The position numbers and the translations under genes were made by a program. A DNA stretch of 64,000 bases from an uncultured Candidatus Saccharibacteria bacterium (GTDB lineage Bacteria; Patescibacteriota; Minisyncoccia; Phycocordibacterales; CSBR16-119): positions 85,560-149,559 of the forward strand of contig CAZLAD010000002.1 in assembly GCA_964557535.1 (NCBI GenBank). The letters run 5' to 3'. The notes below the pieces were generated by a model that saw nothing but the letters and a program-made list of their open reading frames with translations, was not told the DNA's origin and made no database searches. This document shows positions 14,427-28,890 of the stretch, piece after piece. Position 1 is the first letter of the stretch; each line of letters opens with the position of its first letter.

Positions 14427-15068
14427 TTAATCCTTAAGACGATAAGTATTAATCTTGAACAAATATTTATATTGATCGGTATAAACTTTGTCCTTTTCAG
14501 AAGTTCCTGGGGTGAAAGTAATAGACTGAATATCGATCAGACGCAAACTTCTCTCCATCAGCCCCATAAAAGCCACGAAATCTTTGTATGAACCCTCGAC
14601 AGAAAATTGAAGTTCGAAAATATCGTAATCCAAGTTGTCTGTTGGCGATACGGCTGTTCGACGAACCGGCGTGGTCGCTGTAGTAGAAGTTGTTGAGGCG
14701 GTGTTTTCTGTTGATCCTTCTGGTTTTTCTTCTTCCTCTTCCACGAATTGCTTTGGCTCAAATTGGACGTTTCTGACAACGATGCCTTGGTTGGAGGCTT
14801 GTTCTTGGATCTCTAAAATAAGTTTGATGTTATCAACAGTGTCTGGTAACATTTTTTCTAATTTTGCCAAATCTTCTGGGGCAAAACTATTCAATTTGGT
14901 GGTCAAACGATCGCGTTCTTTTTGGAGGTTTGCAGAATTTTGTAGGGCTTGCTCGTAAGCCTCACTCTCCTTCTGGATAGTTTCGATTTCAGAATATATG
15001 GGTTTTGTAATAAGGATAAATCCCCCGATTCCAACCCCTATTAAAACTATTGGTAATAACCATTTCAT
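14427..15068 (-). CDS. pilO: PilO-like pilus assembly protein
   Basis: N-terminal TM, coiled-coil, acidic low-complexity linker. Position in pilMNO. Confidence 0.6.
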   Translation of the reverse strand: MKWLLPIVLIGVGIGGFILITKPIYSEIETIQKESEAYEQALQNSANLQKERDRLTTKLNSFAPEDLAKLEKMLPDTVDNIKLILEIQEQASNQGIVVRNVQFEPKQFVEEEEEKPEGSTENTASTTSTTATTPVRRTAVSPTDNLDYDIFELQFSVEGSYKDFVAFMGLMERSLRLIDIQSITFTPGTSEKDKVYTDQYKYLFKINTYRLKD

Positions 15069-15071
15069 AAA

Positions 15072-15767
15072 TTAACTTTGATTAGGCATCACATTAGAAG
15101 CATCATCTGTTGGTAATGTTGGCGATACGGGCAATGTTTCGGGTATTATTTCTGGCTCGTTCAATGATTGCTGTCTTTCTAGGAAAGATTCATACACGAC
15201 CAGAGACTTGTCCACAGAAAAAGTTAGGTTGAAAGAAATGTTCCCGAACTGATCAAGTGTAAAACTAGAAAATATTGGATTTTTAATGAAATTATTTTGA
15301 GCAAAGAGATCCGACTGCAATGCAATATAATTATAACCTTTTGCTTGACCGTTTATCTTTATATTAACAAGATTTGGATTTTGTTTATTGAATTCATAAG
15401 AGAAATCAGAATAACGAACTGTCGGAAGAGTAATTTCACCCAAAAGAGAAAATATAGGTGAAACAGCAACATGATTATCTAAAATTATCGTAGACGCCTT
15501 CATGCGCTTATCTAGAAGTTGGAGTTTTGTTATAAGTGTTGGCTCAAAAGCCGCTTTCGCTCTGACCAAAGATTCTTTGTAGGACTCCAGAGTATTTAAA
15601 AGAGAAGAACGATAGAAATAAACCCCTCCGGCACCCAAAATTGAAGCGATAAAAATCAAAAGCGCCAAAAGATTTAATAGACCACCAAAACCACCCCCCG
15701 AACGCTTTGGTTCGCGCTCTGCTATCGTTTTTTTAGGTACAAAAGATGTTTGAAATTCTTTATCCAT
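15072..15767 (-). CDS. pilN: PilN-like pilus assembly protein
   Basis: Single N-terminal TM after a basic cytoplasmic segment, periplasmic domain. Follows pilM. Confidence 0.6.
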   Translation of the reverse strand: MDKEFQTSFVPKKTIAEREPKRSGGGFGGLLNLLALLIFIASILGAGGVYFYRSSLLNTLESYKESLVRAKAAFEPTLITKLQLLDKRMKASTIILDNHVAVSPIFSLLGEITLPTVRYSDFSYEFNKQNPNLVNIKINGQAKGYNYIALQSDLFAQNNFIKNPIFSSFTLDQFGNISFNLTFSVDKSLVVYESFLERQQSLNEPEIIPETLPVSPTLPTDDASNVMPNQS

Positions 15768-17741: not shown

Positions 17742-17937
17742 TGGCGCTTTGTAGAACTTGAATTTTCTAACTCCAAAGAAGCGGGTTTTTGATGTTCTTG
17801 TACTTCCCGATCATCGATCTTCTATTTCTCACGAATATATTTTAGCATGTCTAAATAGTCGGTTTTTGTTTCGAATATCACCTGCTCGCGCGCCGACACC
17901 TCAATCAAATGACAAAAGTCATTTTCTTGAGTCATTG

Positions 17938-18024
17938 CGGAGACGAGAGGATTCGAACCTCCGAGGGCTTTTACACCCTACCTCGTTAGCAGTGAGGCGC
18001 TTTCGACCACTCAGCCACGTCTCC
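17938..18024 (-). tRNA. tRNA-Ser (anticodon GCU), class II with long variable arm
   Basis: Reverse complement folds as acceptor GGAGACG/CGTCTCC, D-loop GAGTGGTCGAA, anticodon loop CUGCUAA, long variable arm, T-loop GGAGGTTCGAATCCTCT. No encoded CCA. Confidence 0.85.
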
Positions 18025-18182: not shown

Positions 18183-18269
18183 GGAGGATTGGATGAGTGG
18201 TTTAAATCAGCGGTTTACTAAACCGCCGGCTGGTAAAACGGCCCGTGAGTTCGAATCTCACATCCTCCG
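18183..18269 (+). tRNA. class II (Ser-like) tRNA with apparent ACU anticodon (unusual; possible pseudo- or atypical tRNA)
   Basis: Acceptor GGAGGAT/ATCCTCC, T-arm GTGAG-TTCGAAT-CTCAC, anticodon arm GCGGT-UUACUAA-ACCGC, long variable arm. Shares the GAGTGGT D-loop with the neighbouring tRNA-Ser. Confidence 0.6.
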
Positions 18270-18289
18270 CAAATTTTCTAAAAAAGCAA

Positions 18290-22065: not shown

Positions 22066-22223
22066 TAAAAACAAGATGTTTTGCCTTAAAAGTCCGTTCT
22101 GTTTGAGGAGTGTCTAAACACTCCGAGTTAACGGATCTTTTTGGCTTAAAACATCTTGTTTTTAGGCTAGATTTTTTCTGGGTCTTGAATTTTTGGTTAC
22201 TTTTGCTTCAAGGCAAAAGTAAC
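22066..22223 (+). promoter_or_regulatory. nested hairpin region between the receiver gene and recG (terminator or attenuator-like)
   Basis: 18-nt perfect inverted repeat CTAAAAACAAGATGTTTT at 22066-22083 and 22148-22165, enclosing hairpin GGAGTG-TCTAAA-CACTCC (22107-22124). A third hairpin GTTACTTTTGC-TTCAAGG-CAAAAGTAAC lies at 22196-22223. Confidence 0.5.
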
Positions 22224-22250
22224 GGAGAGAGCTACTGTATAATAGAACTC

Positions 22251-24455
22251 ATGCAAATCTCGGAAAGGATTGAAGATAATTTTAGATTAACTCCAGACCA
22301 GAAAAAGGCTCTTTCGCGTCTCGGCTTGCAAACGATTGAAGATCTCCTATTTTACTTCCCCACCCGCTACAGCGACATAAGCGAAATCAAACTCATCCGC
22401 GATCTCGTCGCCGGCGATGTCGCGACAGTTTATGGCGAGATAAATAAACTCAAAGTCAAAAAAGCCTTTCGAAGCAAAATACCTATGGCCGAAGGCGTCA
22501 TCGATGACGGCACCGGCCGACTCAAAGTCACATGGTTTAACCAAGCCTACATCGGAAAAATGCTTCACGACGGACAGAAGGTTTCACTAACTGGAAAAAT
22601 TAGCGAAGGCAAATACGGCATGTCGATGTCGAATCCTGAATACGCGCCGACAGCTGGTCTCCCTATCGACATGCACAACACACTTTTCGCTGGAGAAAAT
22701 TCCGAAGAATTTTCATATCCAATTTATCCCGAAACTCGCGGCATCACTTCAAAATGGATTTATCACGCCGTGCAAAAAATTGTTGGGAGTGGAATCATAA
22801 AAAGTCTGAACGAATATATTCCGGAGGAGATTTTAGAAAAGTATCATTTACCGAAACTTTCAACAGCGCTGGTATGGATCCATATGCCAAAGAAAAAATC
22901 TGACGCCGATTCAGCTCGAAAACGTTTTGCCTTCGAAGAAGTTTTTATGATTCAGCTCGAAAAAGCCCGCGAGCGCGAAGAAAATCGCGAGAAAAAATCT
23001 TTTAAAATTTCTGTCGACAAAAAAGATATTCTGGATTTTACAAAACGCTTTCCATTCGAAATGACGGCCGGACAAAAATCAGCAATCGATGACATACTTC
23101 AAGACTTCCAAAAAGAATATCCGATGTCGCGACTTCTCGAAGGAGACGTTGGTTCGGGCAAAACAGCCGTCGCAGCCACGGCAGCGTATGCGGTGATCAA
23201 CAATAAGCCCTTCGACGTTGCTCGGGGCCGTTTGCAGACCTTCGGAAATCTGCAAACGGCCTACATGGCGCCGACGGAGATCTTGGCCAATCAACATTTT
23301 GAAAGTTTTATAAAATATTTTACTCACCCGTCCGAACGAGACGGTTCGGCTCGGGCGGGTACCGGCATCCAGGTCGGACTAATCACCGGCTCGGGATGCA
23401 AGAAGTTTCCGTCAAAAATAAACCCGACGGAGTGGACGGATATTTCAAAAGCCCAACTACTAAAATGGGTGGCCAATGGCGAAATCCCAATCCTTATCGG
23501 CACACACGCCCTCATTTACAAGTCCGTCAAGTTCAAACATTTGGCGCTTACCATCGTCGACGAACAGCATCGCTTCGGAACAAAACAACGCGGCAAATTG
23601 GCGAAAAAAGATGAATTTGCACCACATTTTCTGTCGATGACGGCGACGCCTATTCCCCGCACGCTCGCGCTCACCATCTACGGCGACCTCGATTTGACGC
23701 TCCTAGATGAAATGCCGGCTGGCCGAAAAAAAGTCATCACTGAAATCATCGCGCCCAACAAACGTGACGAAACATATGATTTTATAAAAAGTGAAATGGC
23801 AAACGGTCGCCAGCTCTACGTCATCTGCCCGAGAATTGATGAACCTGATCCGGATAAAGAATTTGCGTTACAGGCAAAGTCGGTCAAAGCCGAGGCACAG
23901 AGATTGAAACGTGAAATTTTCCCCGACAAAACAATCGGCATTCTGCATAGCAAAATGACACCAGCCGAAAAAGAACGCGTCATGGAAAAATTTGAAAAAG
24001 CCGAAATTGATATTTTATGCGCGACGTCAGTCGTCGAAGTCGGCGTGAACGTCCCAAACGCTACACTCATCATAATTGAAGGCGCGGAAAGATTCGGCCT
24101 GGCCCAACTTCACCAGCTTCGTGGACGTGTTATACGTTCGAACCATCAGGCGTATTGTTTCGTCATGCCAGAAAGCGTTAGCAAGAAAAGTGTGGATAGA
24201 TTGAAAGCTTTGAAGACTGCCAAAAATGGATTTGAACTTTCGGAACTCGACTTACAACTTCGCGGTTCAGGAGACCTAGCTGGCATGAAGCAATGGGGCG
24301 TCACAGACCTTGGTATGGAAGCGATCAAAAATATTAAAATGGTCGAAGCCGCGCGAAACGAAGCGCGTGAAATCGTAACCAACAACCTCCTGCCTAAATT
24401 CCCCGCCCTAGAAACTGAATTCCTAAAACGAGAAAAGAAAATTCACTTTGAATAA
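22251..24455 (+). CDS. recG: ATP-dependent DNA helicase RecG
   Basis: Wedge domain, helicase motifs GDVGSGKT, DEQHRFG, TATPIPRTL. ATG at 22251 (MQISER...) sits 7 nt after a TATAAT box; the track start at 22110 is upstream of that box. Confidence 0.92.
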   Translation: MQISERIEDNFRLTPDQKKALSRLGLQTIEDLLFYFPTRYSDISEIKLIRDLVAGDVATVYGEINKLKVKKAFRSKIPMAEGVIDDGTGRLKVTWFNQAYIGKMLHDGQKVSLTGKISEGKYGMSMSNPEYAPTAGLPIDMHNTLFAGENSEEFSYPIYPETRGITSKWIYHAVQKIVGSGIIKSLNEYIPEEILEKYHLPKLSTALVWIHMPKKKSDADSARKRFAFEEVFMIQLEKAREREENREKKSFKISVDKKDILDFTKRFPFEMTAGQKSAIDDILQDFQKEYPMSRLLEGDVGSGKTAVAATAAYAVINNKPFDVARGRLQTFGNLQTAYMAPTEILANQHFESFIKYFTHPSERDGSARAGTGIQVGLITGSGCKKFPSKINPTEWTDISKAQLLKWVANGEIPILIGTHALIYKSVKFKHLALTIVDEQHRFGTKQRGKLAKKDEFAPHFLSMTATPIPRTLALTIYGDLDLTLLDEMPAGRKKVITEIIAPNKRDETYDFIKSEMANGRQLYVICPRIDEPDPDKEFALQAKSVKAEAQRLKREIFPDKTIGILHSKMTPAEKERVMEKFEKAEIDILCATSVVEVGVNVPNATLIIIEGAERFGLAQLHQLRGRVIRSNHQAYCFVMPESVSKKSVDRLKALKTAKNGFELSELDLQLRGSGDLAGMKQWGVTDLGMEAIKNIKMVEAARNEAREIVTNNLLPKFPALETEFLKREKKIHFE

Positions 24456-24460
24456 AAACA

Positions 24461-24488
24461 AAACCACCCTTTCGGGTGGTTTTGTTTG
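24461..24488 (+). terminator. rho-independent terminator AAACCACCCTTTCGGGTGGTTTTGTTTG
   Basis: Hairpin plus U-tract immediately after the recG stop. Confidence 0.85.
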
Positions 24489-24494
24489 CAAATT

Positions 24495-25718
24495 TTATTT
24501 TTTAGCTAACTTCTCTTGCAATGAATTAATAATGACTGCATTTGCTATGTTCTGCCAAAGAACGGCACTTTTACCAGTTCTATTAGGATTACTACCATAC
24601 TCTTTCGTGTGGGCTTCTAGGATTTGACCAACTAGTTTTGAACCGTGTTTCTCCAAAAAATCTTCTGGAGCAACAGCCCAATCAAGTTCACCTTCTCTTT
24701 CTTCGAGTAAGAAACGTAGAGATGCGAATATAGGCATTATAAAACCTTTTGCAAGCCTGTAATCAACAATCTCTCCTGTGAAAGGTAACTTAATCTCTAA
24801 TGCTTTTTTATTTTCACCTTTCCCTCTATATTTTTCAACGCCTTTTATTCTACCGAAAATTTTAGTACCTGAATTTTTGGCGTAATCTTCAAAATTTTTG
24901 TAGAGATATTCGTATAATCTGACAATAGAAGGAAGTAGATGGTATATCTTTTCATAGGATGAACGATTTTTCTTGTTCGACCATTTTTTGAAACAAGAAT
25001 TGAGACCTGTATATGTAACTGTTGGTTGATTTGTTTCCGAATAAAGTTCTCTGTTAAGGGCCGTCATAAGTGCTATGAGTTCTTCGATTGGGAATACCGC
25101 TTCGTCGTCGCCTATATCCTGATTTTGATAGAAAATTATTTTCCTACTCAAACTTCCTAGTGCTTCTTTTATTGGATCAAACTCTTTATTTTGGTTACTT
25201 ATTGATTTTTCATCAACCTGCACACTTGTATTTCTCGCCCTCGCCAATTTAGTAGCAAATTCATCTGCCCCTTCTATGACTGTTACAAATATGGGTAGAT
25301 CTTTGAGTGATTCATCTTTTATTACTTTCTTCAATACTTCATATGTATGTCCCCCATCGACAAGACCTCCTTCTGAATTACCTTCTTCATCCTGACCAAA
25401 ATCAATAATTACTCTCTTGTCTTGATCATTAACTGCTGGAAAGTGTACCTTTTTAGCAATTAAGAGTAGTCCTCTGTTACAATCTGTGAAATATTCTGGT
25501 TCATCTTCCAAGGTTTCTAACATTTGTTTACATGGTTTACTATTGATATCAGGTTTTCTCGGATTAGGTACTAGTGGTATATCTTGAGGAAGGTCTTTAA
25601 GTAAAATAAAAAGGAAATGCGTCTTTATGACATCATTCCCCTCTGTGTCGTTATAATGCAACTTGCGAGTTATAGTCCTAGATTGTGAGTAATTAAACTC
25701 AAGATTTGTGTTCGTCAT
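24495..25718 (-). CDS. orphan 407-aa protein in an AT-rich islet next to a tRNA; possible ParB/Srx-fold (DGQHR/DGQQR-like) defence-associated protein
   Basis: GC about 36% against about 40% in the flanks. Motif GLVDGGHTYEV resembles the DGQHR/DGQQR signature of DndB/DUF262 ParB-like nucleases. Sits between the recG terminator and tRNA-Ile, with no integrase. Confidence 0.5.
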   Translation of the reverse strand: MTNTNLEFNYSQSRTITRKLHYNDTEGNDVIKTHFLFILLKDLPQDIPLVPNPRKPDINSKPCKQMLETLEDEPEYFTDCNRGLLLIAKKVHFPAVNDQDKRVIIDFGQDEEGNSEGGLVDGGHTYEVLKKVIKDESLKDLPIFVTVIEGADEFATKLARARNTSVQVDEKSISNQNKEFDPIKEALGSLSRKIIFYQNQDIGDDEAVFPIEELIALMTALNRELYSETNQPTVTYTGLNSCFKKWSNKKNRSSYEKIYHLLPSIVRLYEYLYKNFEDYAKNSGTKIFGRIKGVEKYRGKGENKKALEIKLPFTGEIVDYRLAKGFIMPIFASLRFLLEEREGELDWAVAPEDFLEKHGSKLVGQILEAHTKEYGSNPNRTGKSAVLWQNIANAVIINSLQEKLAKK

Positions 25719-25861
25719 ATATTTCTTATCTATAAAATTAATAATTTTACGTCAACTCAAAGCAGGGTTACTTTGGCCAACTTTGATCTGCGACAAGGTT
25801 GTCTTCAAATCAACATTGAAATTATATACTATGGAATATCTATTGTCAAAAAAATATTTTG

Positions 25862-25936
25862 TCCACCCTCCACGACTCGAACGTGGGACCCTCGAGGTAT
25901 AAGCTCGATGCTCTAACCAACTGAGCTAAGGGTGGT
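25862..25936 (-). tRNA. tRNA-Ile (anticodon UAU)
   Basis: Reverse complement: acceptor CCACCCU/AGGGUGG, D-arm GCUCAGUUGGUUAGAGC, anticodon arm UCGAG-CUUAUAC-CUCGA, T-arm CCACG-UUCGAGU-CGUGG, discriminator A. Confidence 0.8.
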
Positions 25937-28508: not shown

Positions 28509-28884
28509 GGGGATGACCGGCTTTGACATTTGATTCCCTTTTGTTAGCGCATGTCGAGCTGAAGTAACTCGTCAAACTGCTTCAAACCCTTAGATGCAAA
28601 ATCTAAAGGACTAGTGAAGTCTCCATTTCAAATGAAGGCTTTCACTCCAGCTTTCGCGTAAGCCAGGGCTGGTGTCATTCATTCTGAATCCTGATACGGA
28701 TGAATGGCATAATAAAATCGGGATAAGCGCTCGGCCTTCTCGCCCGCGCGACAAAAATCTAGAGATCGATTCGTGTTTGTTTTGTTTATCCTATAGAACA
28801 CGTCTCTAAATCAAAAGATAAACTACACATGTAGACCCTAGCAGAAGCATCTTATGGACGGGGGTTCAATTCCCCCCATCTCCA
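28509..28884 (+). ncRNA. ssrA: tmRNA (SsrA)
   Basis: 5' GGGGAUG pairs with 3' CAUCUCC including the G3-U wobble. T-arm GGGGGUUCAAUUCCCCC then ACA. An internal reading frame ends ...QMKAFTPAFA*. Terminator follows. Confidence 0.8.
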
Positions 28885-28890
28885 CAATTA

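Follow-up and report, generated by a model that had tools for sequence, protein, structure and literature searches.

A short AIPR-family gene with a structured 5′ leader RNA at a variable site between recG and tRNA-Ile(UAU) in a Saccharibacteria genome

Introduction

Abortive-infection phage resistance gave the AIPR family (PF10592; AbiU1-like) its name, and the family is regularly classed with defence proteins; we know of no mechanism shown for it. Here we describe a short member of this family in a 64,000-nucleotide stretch of DNA (the window) from an uncultured Candidatus Saccharibacteria bacterium, a tiny symbiotic member of the Patescibacteria (contig CAZLAD010000002.1), where it forms a single-gene islet between recG and tRNA-Ile(UAU). 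Patescibacteria have genomes of about 1 Mb and are hard to study in culture. Defence-island studies list PF10592 among the Abi defence Pfams (PMC10121019), and profile analyses have placed AbiU1, AIPR and COG1479 in the ParB superfamily, with a relationship to the N-terminus of DndB (PMC3506569; PMC3632139). AIPR proteins have been described with an N-terminal HEPN domain (PMC3506569). Lactococcal AbiU delays phage transcription, AbiUi alone being sufficient, and AbiUi has been modelled in a review with a FokI-like nuclease region (PMC13064643). In the literature that we searched on recent AIPR mechanism and on MZA, the anti-phage system that includes the AIPR-family protein MzaE, we found passing mentions only. 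MZA is a multi-gene system. Against this background, the family of the gene described here is known; its product is a new member with a minimal architecture outside the coverage of defence databases, and the new element is the leader RNA.

Results

The islet gene encodes a short-form AIPR protein

The gene and its extent are as follows.

24495..25718, minus strand: AIPR-family gene, short form, 407 amino acids, ATG start, stop codon at 24495-24497

The encoded protein matched the Pfam AIPR model with an E-value of 5.3e-28 and 99 bits against a gathering cut-off of 25, and the match extended from residue 51 to residue 364 and over profile positions 3-290 of 308, which is near-full coverage of the model. 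A large protein database yielded 995 homologues, all with PF10592 and almost all of about 400 amino acids, several of which carry the NCBI name 'AIPR family protein'; the same model matched 61 of 61 aligned relatives. The first-pass annotation, which had been made from the sequence alone and had recognised no mainstream family, was therefore wrong on this point. The closest clade consisted of proteins from Parcubacteria and other Patescibacteria metagenome-assembled genomes with 54-71% identity, followed at about 30% identity by relatives from Firmicutes, cyanobacterial plasmids and gut metagenomes. An exhaustive profile search retrieved 2163 representatives of 50%-identity clusters at E<=1e-3, 802 of them at E<=1e-30, and nearly all were 390-420 amino acids long and matched end to end. 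The short AIPR proteins make up a large subfamily of fixed architecture.

Defence databases do not cover this subfamily well. Scanning PADLOC-DB v2, which includes Abi, Mza, GmrSD, Dnd and Ssp models, returned no family at E<=1 for the window protein, so the defence-system scan that had been proposed for it was silent, and none at E<=10 for five relatives. The PHROGs and NCBIfam scans of the window protein were likewise without a match. Among the 61 family members, three weakly matched NCBIfam NF041935 (MzaE, 'MZA anti-phage system associated AIPR family protein'; E 1.3e-4). A Patatin match of the window protein (E 0.062) was rejected as chance. We also sought a long-form, HEPN-containing AIPR or AbiU1 sequence, and every plasmid or phage match that we opened was a short form of 342-469 amino acids; the link between AbiU1 and AIPR is thus taken from the literature only (PMC3506569; PMC3632139).

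Compared with AIPR and AbiU1-type proteins, the window protein scores far above threshold over nearly the whole domain model and shares the ParB-like core described for AbiU1, AIPR and COG1479 (PMC3632139), and its homologues, like other family members, repeatedly lie near restriction-modification genes. In contrast, the window gene stands alone as a monocistronic unit with an RNA leader, and its product of only 407 amino acids leaves no room for the HEPN or FokI-like regions reported for AIPR proteins and AbiUi. MzaE also belongs to the AIPR family but sits in a named anti-phage system, whereas the window protein itself was unmatched by NF041935 and its locus contains no partner genes.

The protein consists of a ParB/Srx-like domain and a helical domain

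The domains and conserved motifs, with conservation taken from an alignment of 61 sequences (A1), are located as follows.

25104..25718, minus strand: N-terminal ParB/Srx-like domain, residues 1-205, acidic, pI 4.95
24498..25103, minus strand: C-terminal helical domain, residues 206-407, basic, pI 9.19
25557..25565, minus strand: NPR motif (N52-P53-R54), R54 invariant
25470..25478, minus strand: NRG motif (N81-R82-G83), all three residues invariant
25344..25358, minus strand: DGGHT motif (residues 121-125), D121 and G122 invariant, G123, H124 and T125 in at least 90% of sequences
25215..25238, minus strand: ARNTSVQV motif, with A161, R162, N163, T164, S165, Q167 and V168 in at least 90% of sequences

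Structure comparison of the N-terminal domain ranked ParB/Srx proteins in all of the top 11 places among 48,164 PDB chains; with the full-length model, four ParB/Srx proteins were among the top 24 structural matches. Foldseek, the check suggested for the first-pass annotation, gave BrxU and pNOB8 ParB-N as the two best matches. The N-terminal domain is therefore predicted to have a ParB/Srx fold, an assignment at the level of the fold that agrees with what had been suggested from the DGGHT motif. The segment GLVDGGHTYEV, on which that suggestion was based, is indeed present at residues 118-128, and in the predicted model DGGHT lies at the junction of a strand (118-121) and a helix (123-132), as do the glycine-containing ParB/Srx signature motifs of the GERRxR, DGQQR and FGGCHR type. 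We take NPR to resemble the ParB box I motif 'NPxQPR', and ARNTSVQV presumably corresponds to the box III motif 'ENLQR'. Residues 164-174, the only part of the model with low confidence, overlap ARNTSVQV. The PDB yielded no match in either a sequence or a profile search, and none of the 61 members matched a ParBc, DUF262 or DndB profile at E<=5. For the C-terminal helical domain, in which P329, R335, W347, N377, P378, G382, K383 and W388 are conserved, no solved structural relative was found.

HEPN gave no Pfam match in the window protein or the 61 members, and the only Rx4-6H string in the protein, at residue 14, has a non-conserved His. There is also no room for an N-terminal HEPN domain, because only 50 residues precede the AIPR domain and these form beta-strands (5-9, 12-19 and 30-39) of the same predicted domain. 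According to the model, the protein comprises the AIPR module only, that is, an acidic N-terminal domain of ParB/Srx fold and a basic helical C-terminal domain, with no HEPN or other effector.

The gene is an insertion at a cargo hotspot next to a tRNA 3′ end

The open reading frame (ORF) has a GC content of 35.0% and a third-position GC content of 26.5%, the lowest among the 51 genes of the window (mean 42.8%, standard deviation 3.6), which bears out the earlier description of an AT-rich single-gene islet with about 36% GC. The lowest-GC 1224-nt sliding window in the whole 64 kb also falls on this ORF, equally low windows amounting to 0.5%. Its borders are formed by the following features.

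22110..24455, plus strand: recG, left border of the insertion
24456..24487, both strands: bidirectional intrinsic terminator with a perfect 14-bp stem and U-tracts on each strand
25861..25935, minus strand: tRNA-Ile(UAU), anticodon TAT (ARAGORN; Rfam tRNA, 65.9 bits), its 3′ end being the right border of the insertion

Through a scan for RecG with one genome per species, we obtained seven syntenic relatives, all Patescibacteria or Saccharibacteria metagenome-assembled genomes with RecG 73-87% identical. The gene order histidine kinase, response regulator, recG, gap, tRNA-Ile(UAU), ftsH, smpB and tmRNA was kept in all seven, and none of them encoded an AIPR homologue at all, so that the gene, whose variable presence at this locus had been proposed as a check, is not a syntenic core gene. 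The distance from the recG stop codon to the tRNA was 6, 7, 42, 336, 607, 623 and 1734 bp in the seven relatives. The gaps of 6 and 7 bp represent the empty site, and the longer ones (42-1734 bp) are filled with unrelated genes. From about 24455-24464 to about 25850-25860, the window has no nucleotide homology to the relatives. Because the relatives range from an empty site to differing cargo and homology breaks at the borders, the AIPR gene is an insertion and the interval between recG and the tRNA is a cargo hotspot at the tRNA 3′ end. Its lowest GC content in the window, its absence from the seven syntenic relatives, two of them with an empty site, and the differing contexts of its homologues all argue that the gene was horizontally acquired and is of foreign origin.

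The islet contains no integrase ORF, and its flanks showed no direct repeats of the att type and no second copy of the tRNA end, the only repeats being short and attributable to chance. The insertion thus lacks the integrase and the repeats duplicating the tRNA 3′ end that mark a tRNA-targeted integrative element, and still abuts the tRNA 3′ end, consistent with the integration hotspot without integrase that had been noted at this position.

The placement between a strong terminator and a tRNA gene was also correct, though the assignment of that terminator to recG most likely was not. A simple promoter and terminator scan reported no terminator; the 14-bp hairpin was revealed by folding, with dG of -21.6/-22.0 kcal/mol and z of -6.4/-6.0 for the two strands. 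It begins 7 nt past the AIPR stop codon and 1 nt past that of recG, the two genes being convergent. In 12 of 14 Patescibacteria-clade AIPR genes, the stop codon is immediately followed by a GC-rich hairpin and then a run of T, and the hairpin of the window therefore most likely belongs to the AIPR cassette.

In the relatives, the gap cargo includes a NUDIX-like 188-amino-acid protein, a 238-amino-acid nucleotidyltransferase and a 91-amino-acid membrane protein in L005 (10382-11993), a 199-amino-acid hypothetical protein in L006 (10161-10760; 10830-11528), which also has a 232-amino-acid gene between the tRNA and ftsH, and a small ORF in L004 (7778-8113).

A covarying leader RNA precedes the gene in the Patescibacteria clade

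Two elements were located between the tRNA and the start codon.

25821..25849, minus strand: sigma-70-type promoter, TTGACA (25849-25844), 17-nt spacer, TATAAT (25826-25821), 12 of 12 consensus positions matched
25719..25815, minus strand: structured 5′ leader of about 97 nt, with hairpins at about 25813-25783, 25781-25751 and 25750-25732

The promoter lies between the tRNA 3′ end and the leader, and its -35 box and (often TG-extended) -10 box are kept upstream of Patescibacteria-clade homologues in unrelated genomic contexts. For the window leader, the folding energy is -24.0 kcal/mol (z -4.5); hairpins 1 and 2 have similar loops of the A[C/U]CU type, and hairpin 3 is AT-only. RNAalifold predicted the same three hairpins from 15 distinct leaders, with 28 pairs, 23 of which showed compensatory double changes. 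Across these leaders, including one degenerate sequence (L034), 88.3% of leader cells were paired compared with 71.8±1.3 in column shuffles, 78 cells carried double-sided changes compared with 26.4±4.4, and the covariation score was 0.567 compared with 0.256; on no measure did any of 500 shuffles reach the observed value. When the 3′ partners were displaced by one, two or three columns, pairing fell to 31-47%. G-U pairs are frequent, which indicates that it is the sense strand, the mRNA, that folds.

A covariance model searched over 927 kb of window and loci on both strands matched solely directly upstream of Patescibacteria-clade AIPR genes. It scored 71.7 bits on the window leader, which is itself a training sequence, and 76.2 and 70.8 bits on two loci outside the training set. 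The divergent clade member L134 keeps hairpin 3 but not hairpins 1 and 2, and the stems of L034 are degenerate. Against Rfam 15, the best sub-threshold scores of the leader were 7.7-17.8 bits, with gathering scores of about 40-127. The leader, which accompanies genes whose proteins are 54-71% identical, is thus a new element absent from Rfam and a candidate for regulation in cis, and the promoter, leader, ORF and terminator form a self-contained, monocistronic cassette.

Several other interpretations of these RNA elements were rejected. An integron attC-like reading of the leader disagrees with its location 5′ of the ORF and downstream of the promoter, its three separate hairpins and its sense-strand G-U pairs, and with the lack of an integrase nearby. 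A leader-peptide reading was set aside because the 3-codon ORF of the window leader is not conserved. Sub-threshold Rfam matches around the terminator (Leu and Phe leaders, RNAI and others) were dismissed as generic hairpin matches. Separately, two Patescibacteria-clade loci that otherwise differ (L131, 3641-3799; L133, 3675-3833) share a 52-amino-acid ORF, unmatched in Pfam, at a distance of about 200 nt upstream from the AIPR promoter.

Homologues are solo genes in one clade and pair with a regulator in another

Within the Patescibacteria clade, the AIPR gene was always solo, and each homologue examined was in a different place. Its neighbours comprised DpnI, MutH, and a DNA methyltransferase with a small HNH protein; an SNF2/PLD protein with an MmeI/Eco57I-type (type IIG) enzyme; a CAP12/PCTIR TIR protein; GIY-YIG, Ymh and patatin genes in one locus and RhuM in another; and, outside these types, HtrA with NUDIX, response regulators with a ParB_N protein, and a 1157-amino-acid protein with Bro-N. 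Judged from such individual loci, the surroundings are suggestive of defence islands. At the window locus, the neighbours recG, tRNA and ftsH include no restriction-modification or defence genes.

The Firmicutes-type relatives had a different arrangement. In 50 non-redundant loci, 25 of 48 immediate upstream neighbours were small HTH_3 (Xre) helix-turn-helix (HTH) proteins, nearly all divergently oriented, and the upstream HTH proteins matched the PADLOC models Control_protein (10), capH (8) and HTH_VI (12), the first of which represents controller proteins of restriction-modification systems. The precomputed Pfam tables of the loci examined showed no HTH gene next to Patescibacteria-clade AIPR genes, and the partner therefore appears to be confined to the Firmicutes-type clade. 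The arrangement recalls controller (C) protein regulation in its divergent small HTH gene matching Control_protein but differs from it in that a methyltransferase partner was not consistently present at the HTH+AIPR loci.

Relatives were also found on mobile DNA. The HTH+AIPR pair occurs on the 5.6-kb Enterococcus plasmid pML21 and on L. sakei pKCA54, and 17 IMG/VR viral contigs (prophage-like) and the lytic Bacillus phage Goe8 carry relatives. The Enterococcus faecalis plasmid pML21 (L027; 5598 bp) has five annotated genes, for RepB, a hypothetical protein, an epsilon antitoxin, the HTH regulator and a short AIPR protein, and on a plasmid of five genes the pair thus behaves as plasmid cargo; the same 5.6-5.7-kb plasmid also occurs in E. 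durans and in a record of Corynebacterium ulcerans. In Bacillus phage vB_BmeM-Goe8 (lytic Herelleviridae; L128, 2902-3930), a 342-amino-acid 'putative AIPR protein' encoded between genes for tRNA-His guanylyltransferase and a sigma factor matches the N-terminal ParB/Srx-like part only (residues 46-222).

Some HTH+AIPR loci, which form a subclade, have on the same strand after AIPR a gene for a conserved protein of about 730 amino acids, with 44-63% identity among copies, at the following positions.

L072, 4528-6714: ~730-amino-acid downstream protein
L076, 7206-9410: ~730-amino-acid downstream protein
L077, 1866-4067: ~730-amino-acid downstream protein
L080, 1811-4003: ~730-amino-acid downstream protein
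L086, 7206-9404: ~730-amino-acid downstream protein

The L076 copy had no Pfam or PADLOC match, and the HTH, AIPR and ~730-amino-acid proteins may constitute a system of three genes. A GHKL HATPase_c_3 domain was present in three other downstream neighbours, which recalls the published MORC-AIPR link.

Discussion

The account that we favour, by a modest preference, is that the AIPR protein is a defence-type protein whose action on DNA is gated by nucleoside triphosphates (NTPs). The residues of NPR, NRG, DGGHT and RNTS.Q would form a nucleotide (NTP) pocket of the ParB/Srx type, as in ParB (boxes I-III), DUF262 and sulfiredoxin. Binding or hydrolysis of the NTP would switch the action on DNA, whether clamping with silencing or cleavage, contact with DNA would be made through the basic C-terminal domain, and an invading phage or plasmid would thereby be hindered in the transcription or replication of its DNA. 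A delay of phage transcription, as reported for AbiU (PMC13064643), would fit such an action on DNA. The protein is probably harmful if mis-expressed and hence would need tight control, a task that would fall to the 5′ leader RNA in Patescibacteria-clade genes and to the divergent Xre HTH resembling controller proteins in Firmicutes-clade genes; harmful mis-expression would explain both kinds of control. An association with defence appears to be favoured by the status of PF10592 as an Abi family, the AbiU literature, the weak MzaE matches, the restriction and TIR neighbours, and carriage on small plasmids and prophage-like viral contigs. Of the initial interpretation, the fold class, the mobility and a plausible role in defence have held up, and the absence of a named family and the affinity to DUF262/DndB have not; the gene may well be a defence gene but, as a member of AIPR, is not the undescribed one that had been proposed.

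A bolder extension of this account, tentative and on balance doubtful, is that the short, effector-less AIPR protein is an autonomous single-protein immune or exclusion system, its dosage or activity being governed by a new class of structured leader in Patescibacteria or by a C-protein-like HTH in Firmicutes. The leader would then either be bound by the protein for autoregulation or act as an RNA antitoxin similar to those of type III systems. If this were true, the ParB/Srx NTP switch would be the whole sensor plus effector, and the cassette would join the few defence modules native to the reduced genomes of the Candidate Phyla Radiation that have a riboregulator of their own.

The antitoxin role of the leader defines a special case of the defence reading, one that resembles type III toxin-antitoxin systems: labile, abundant leader hairpins would bind and neutralise a toxic AIPR protein, and once phage shut-off of host transcription led to leader decay, the freed toxin would abort the infection. 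Several observations would fit this role: the ORF and the leader immediately 5′ of it share a transcript that starts from a consensus promoter; two of the leader hairpins have covarying stems and conserved loops that are alike; leader and gene have remained together in loci whose proteins are 54-71% identical; and at the equivalent position the other clade has a protein regulator typical of toxic genes. Unlike type III systems such as ToxIN/AbiQ, however, the leader has only two similar hairpins in place of a tandem repeat array; no RNase activity is implied for AIPR, and ParB/Srx proteins are not known as RNA-processing toxins. Furthermore, no terminator separates the leader from the ORF, hairpin 3 being AT-only, and the loss of hairpins 1 and 2 in L134 and the degenerate stems of L034 add to the difficulty, so we regard the RNA-antitoxin version as rather improbable. 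Unlikely, too, in our estimation is a function outside defence. The protein would then regulate through DNA binding in the manner of ParB or DndB, or would serve mobile DNA in maintenance, exclusion or addiction, and the gene would persist by travelling as a selfish cassette and not by protecting its host from phage. The ParB/Srx relatives KorB, ParB and PadC are regulators or partition proteins, and DndB has been described as a regulator (PMC3506569; PMC3632139); relatives of the window gene reside on very small plasmids beside replication and antitoxin genes and, in one case, in a lytic phage, and no defence-database model (PADLOC) matched the window protein or five relatives. Nevertheless, the gene is accompanied by neither a ParA partner nor centromere-like (parS-like) repeats, and, unlike the CTP-binding ParB, KorB and PadC, its product has no GERRxR arginine pair and no HTH centromere-binding domain. 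The window gene is chromosomal and monocistronic, the recurrent neighbours elsewhere are restriction, TIR and Ymh-type genes and not plasmid-maintenance genes, and the literature ties the family to an experimentally defined Abi system (PMC3506569; PMC13064643).

The first-pass annotation had also pointed to DUF262 and DndB, which would make the protein a GmrSD-like (type IV, modification-dependent) or a DndB-like, phosphorothioate-linked restriction protein. With DndB it shares a similar size and the His of the motif, and the literature relates the DndB N-terminus to AbiU1/AIPR (PMC3506569; PMC3632139). In contrast, no DUF262, DUF1524/HNH, DndB or DGQHR model from Pfam or NCBIfam matched the window protein or the 61 members, the helical C-terminal domain lacks a His-Me finger, and the GmrSD, Dnd and Ssp models of PADLOC were silent. 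The motif reads DGGHT where the DUF262 proteins of GmrSD/BrxU and SspE have DGQQR, Thr replaces the final Arg of the DndB motif, and no dnd (including dndCDE) or ssp genes lie nearby in the window. Membership in these groups is thus largely refuted, and we consider it very improbable. As for an ordinary core gene or a chance ORF within AT-rich spacer DNA, the 995 homologues with their shared invariant motifs, the confident predicted fold and the absence of the gene from all seven syntenic relatives already refute it and leave it next to no probability.

The locus represents a minimal AIPR, in which a ParB/Srx-like core is joined to a helical domain and HEPN and nuclease modules are absent, moving as a one-gene cassette through Patescibacteria. 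If the short form alone protects against phages or plasmids, the AIPR core would be the active part of the family and would offer a compact model for ParB/Srx NTP switches in immunity, beside GmrSD, SspE and the clamps formed by ParB and KorB. The 5′ leader, with its covariation and its retention across proteins of only 54-71% identity, is a concrete new candidate regulatory RNA, and a leader in one clade set against a controller-like HTH in the other would amount to a natural experiment on the need for tight control. Should the gene prove inert in assays, the locus would still be a well-documented cargo hotspot adjacent to a tRNA.

Other features of the window

The recG ORF as listed starts with GTG at 22110; its homologues all align only from about residue 48, and the true start is probably the ATG near 22251 (MQISERIEDNF). 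The second lowest-GC patch of the window, at 14427-15767 on the minus strand, includes an ORF at 15072-15767 with a GC content of 36.1% and no Pfam match; because a PilO-like gene adjoins, the patch probably belongs to a type IV pilus operon and not to foreign DNA.

Decoding of AUA by a tRNA-Ile with a UAU anticodon is unusual in bacteria. This tRNA is kept beside recG and ftsH in all relatives examined (L004-L007, L010, L011 and L017), in inverted orientation in L011. Elsewhere in the window, a tRNA-Ser with anticodon ACT (A34; 18183-18270, plus strand) adjoins a tRNA-Ser(GCT) on the opposite strand (17937-18024, minus strand). To our knowledge, A34 tRNAs apart from Arg(ACG) are rare in bacteria. 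The ACT and GCT genes are also close together in relatives L005, L006 and L018, and the ACT gene was seen in L011. A tmRNA gene (28509-28885, plus strand) with the tag peptide AKSKGLVKSPFQMKAFTPAFA directly follows smpB, and its tag differs among relatives.

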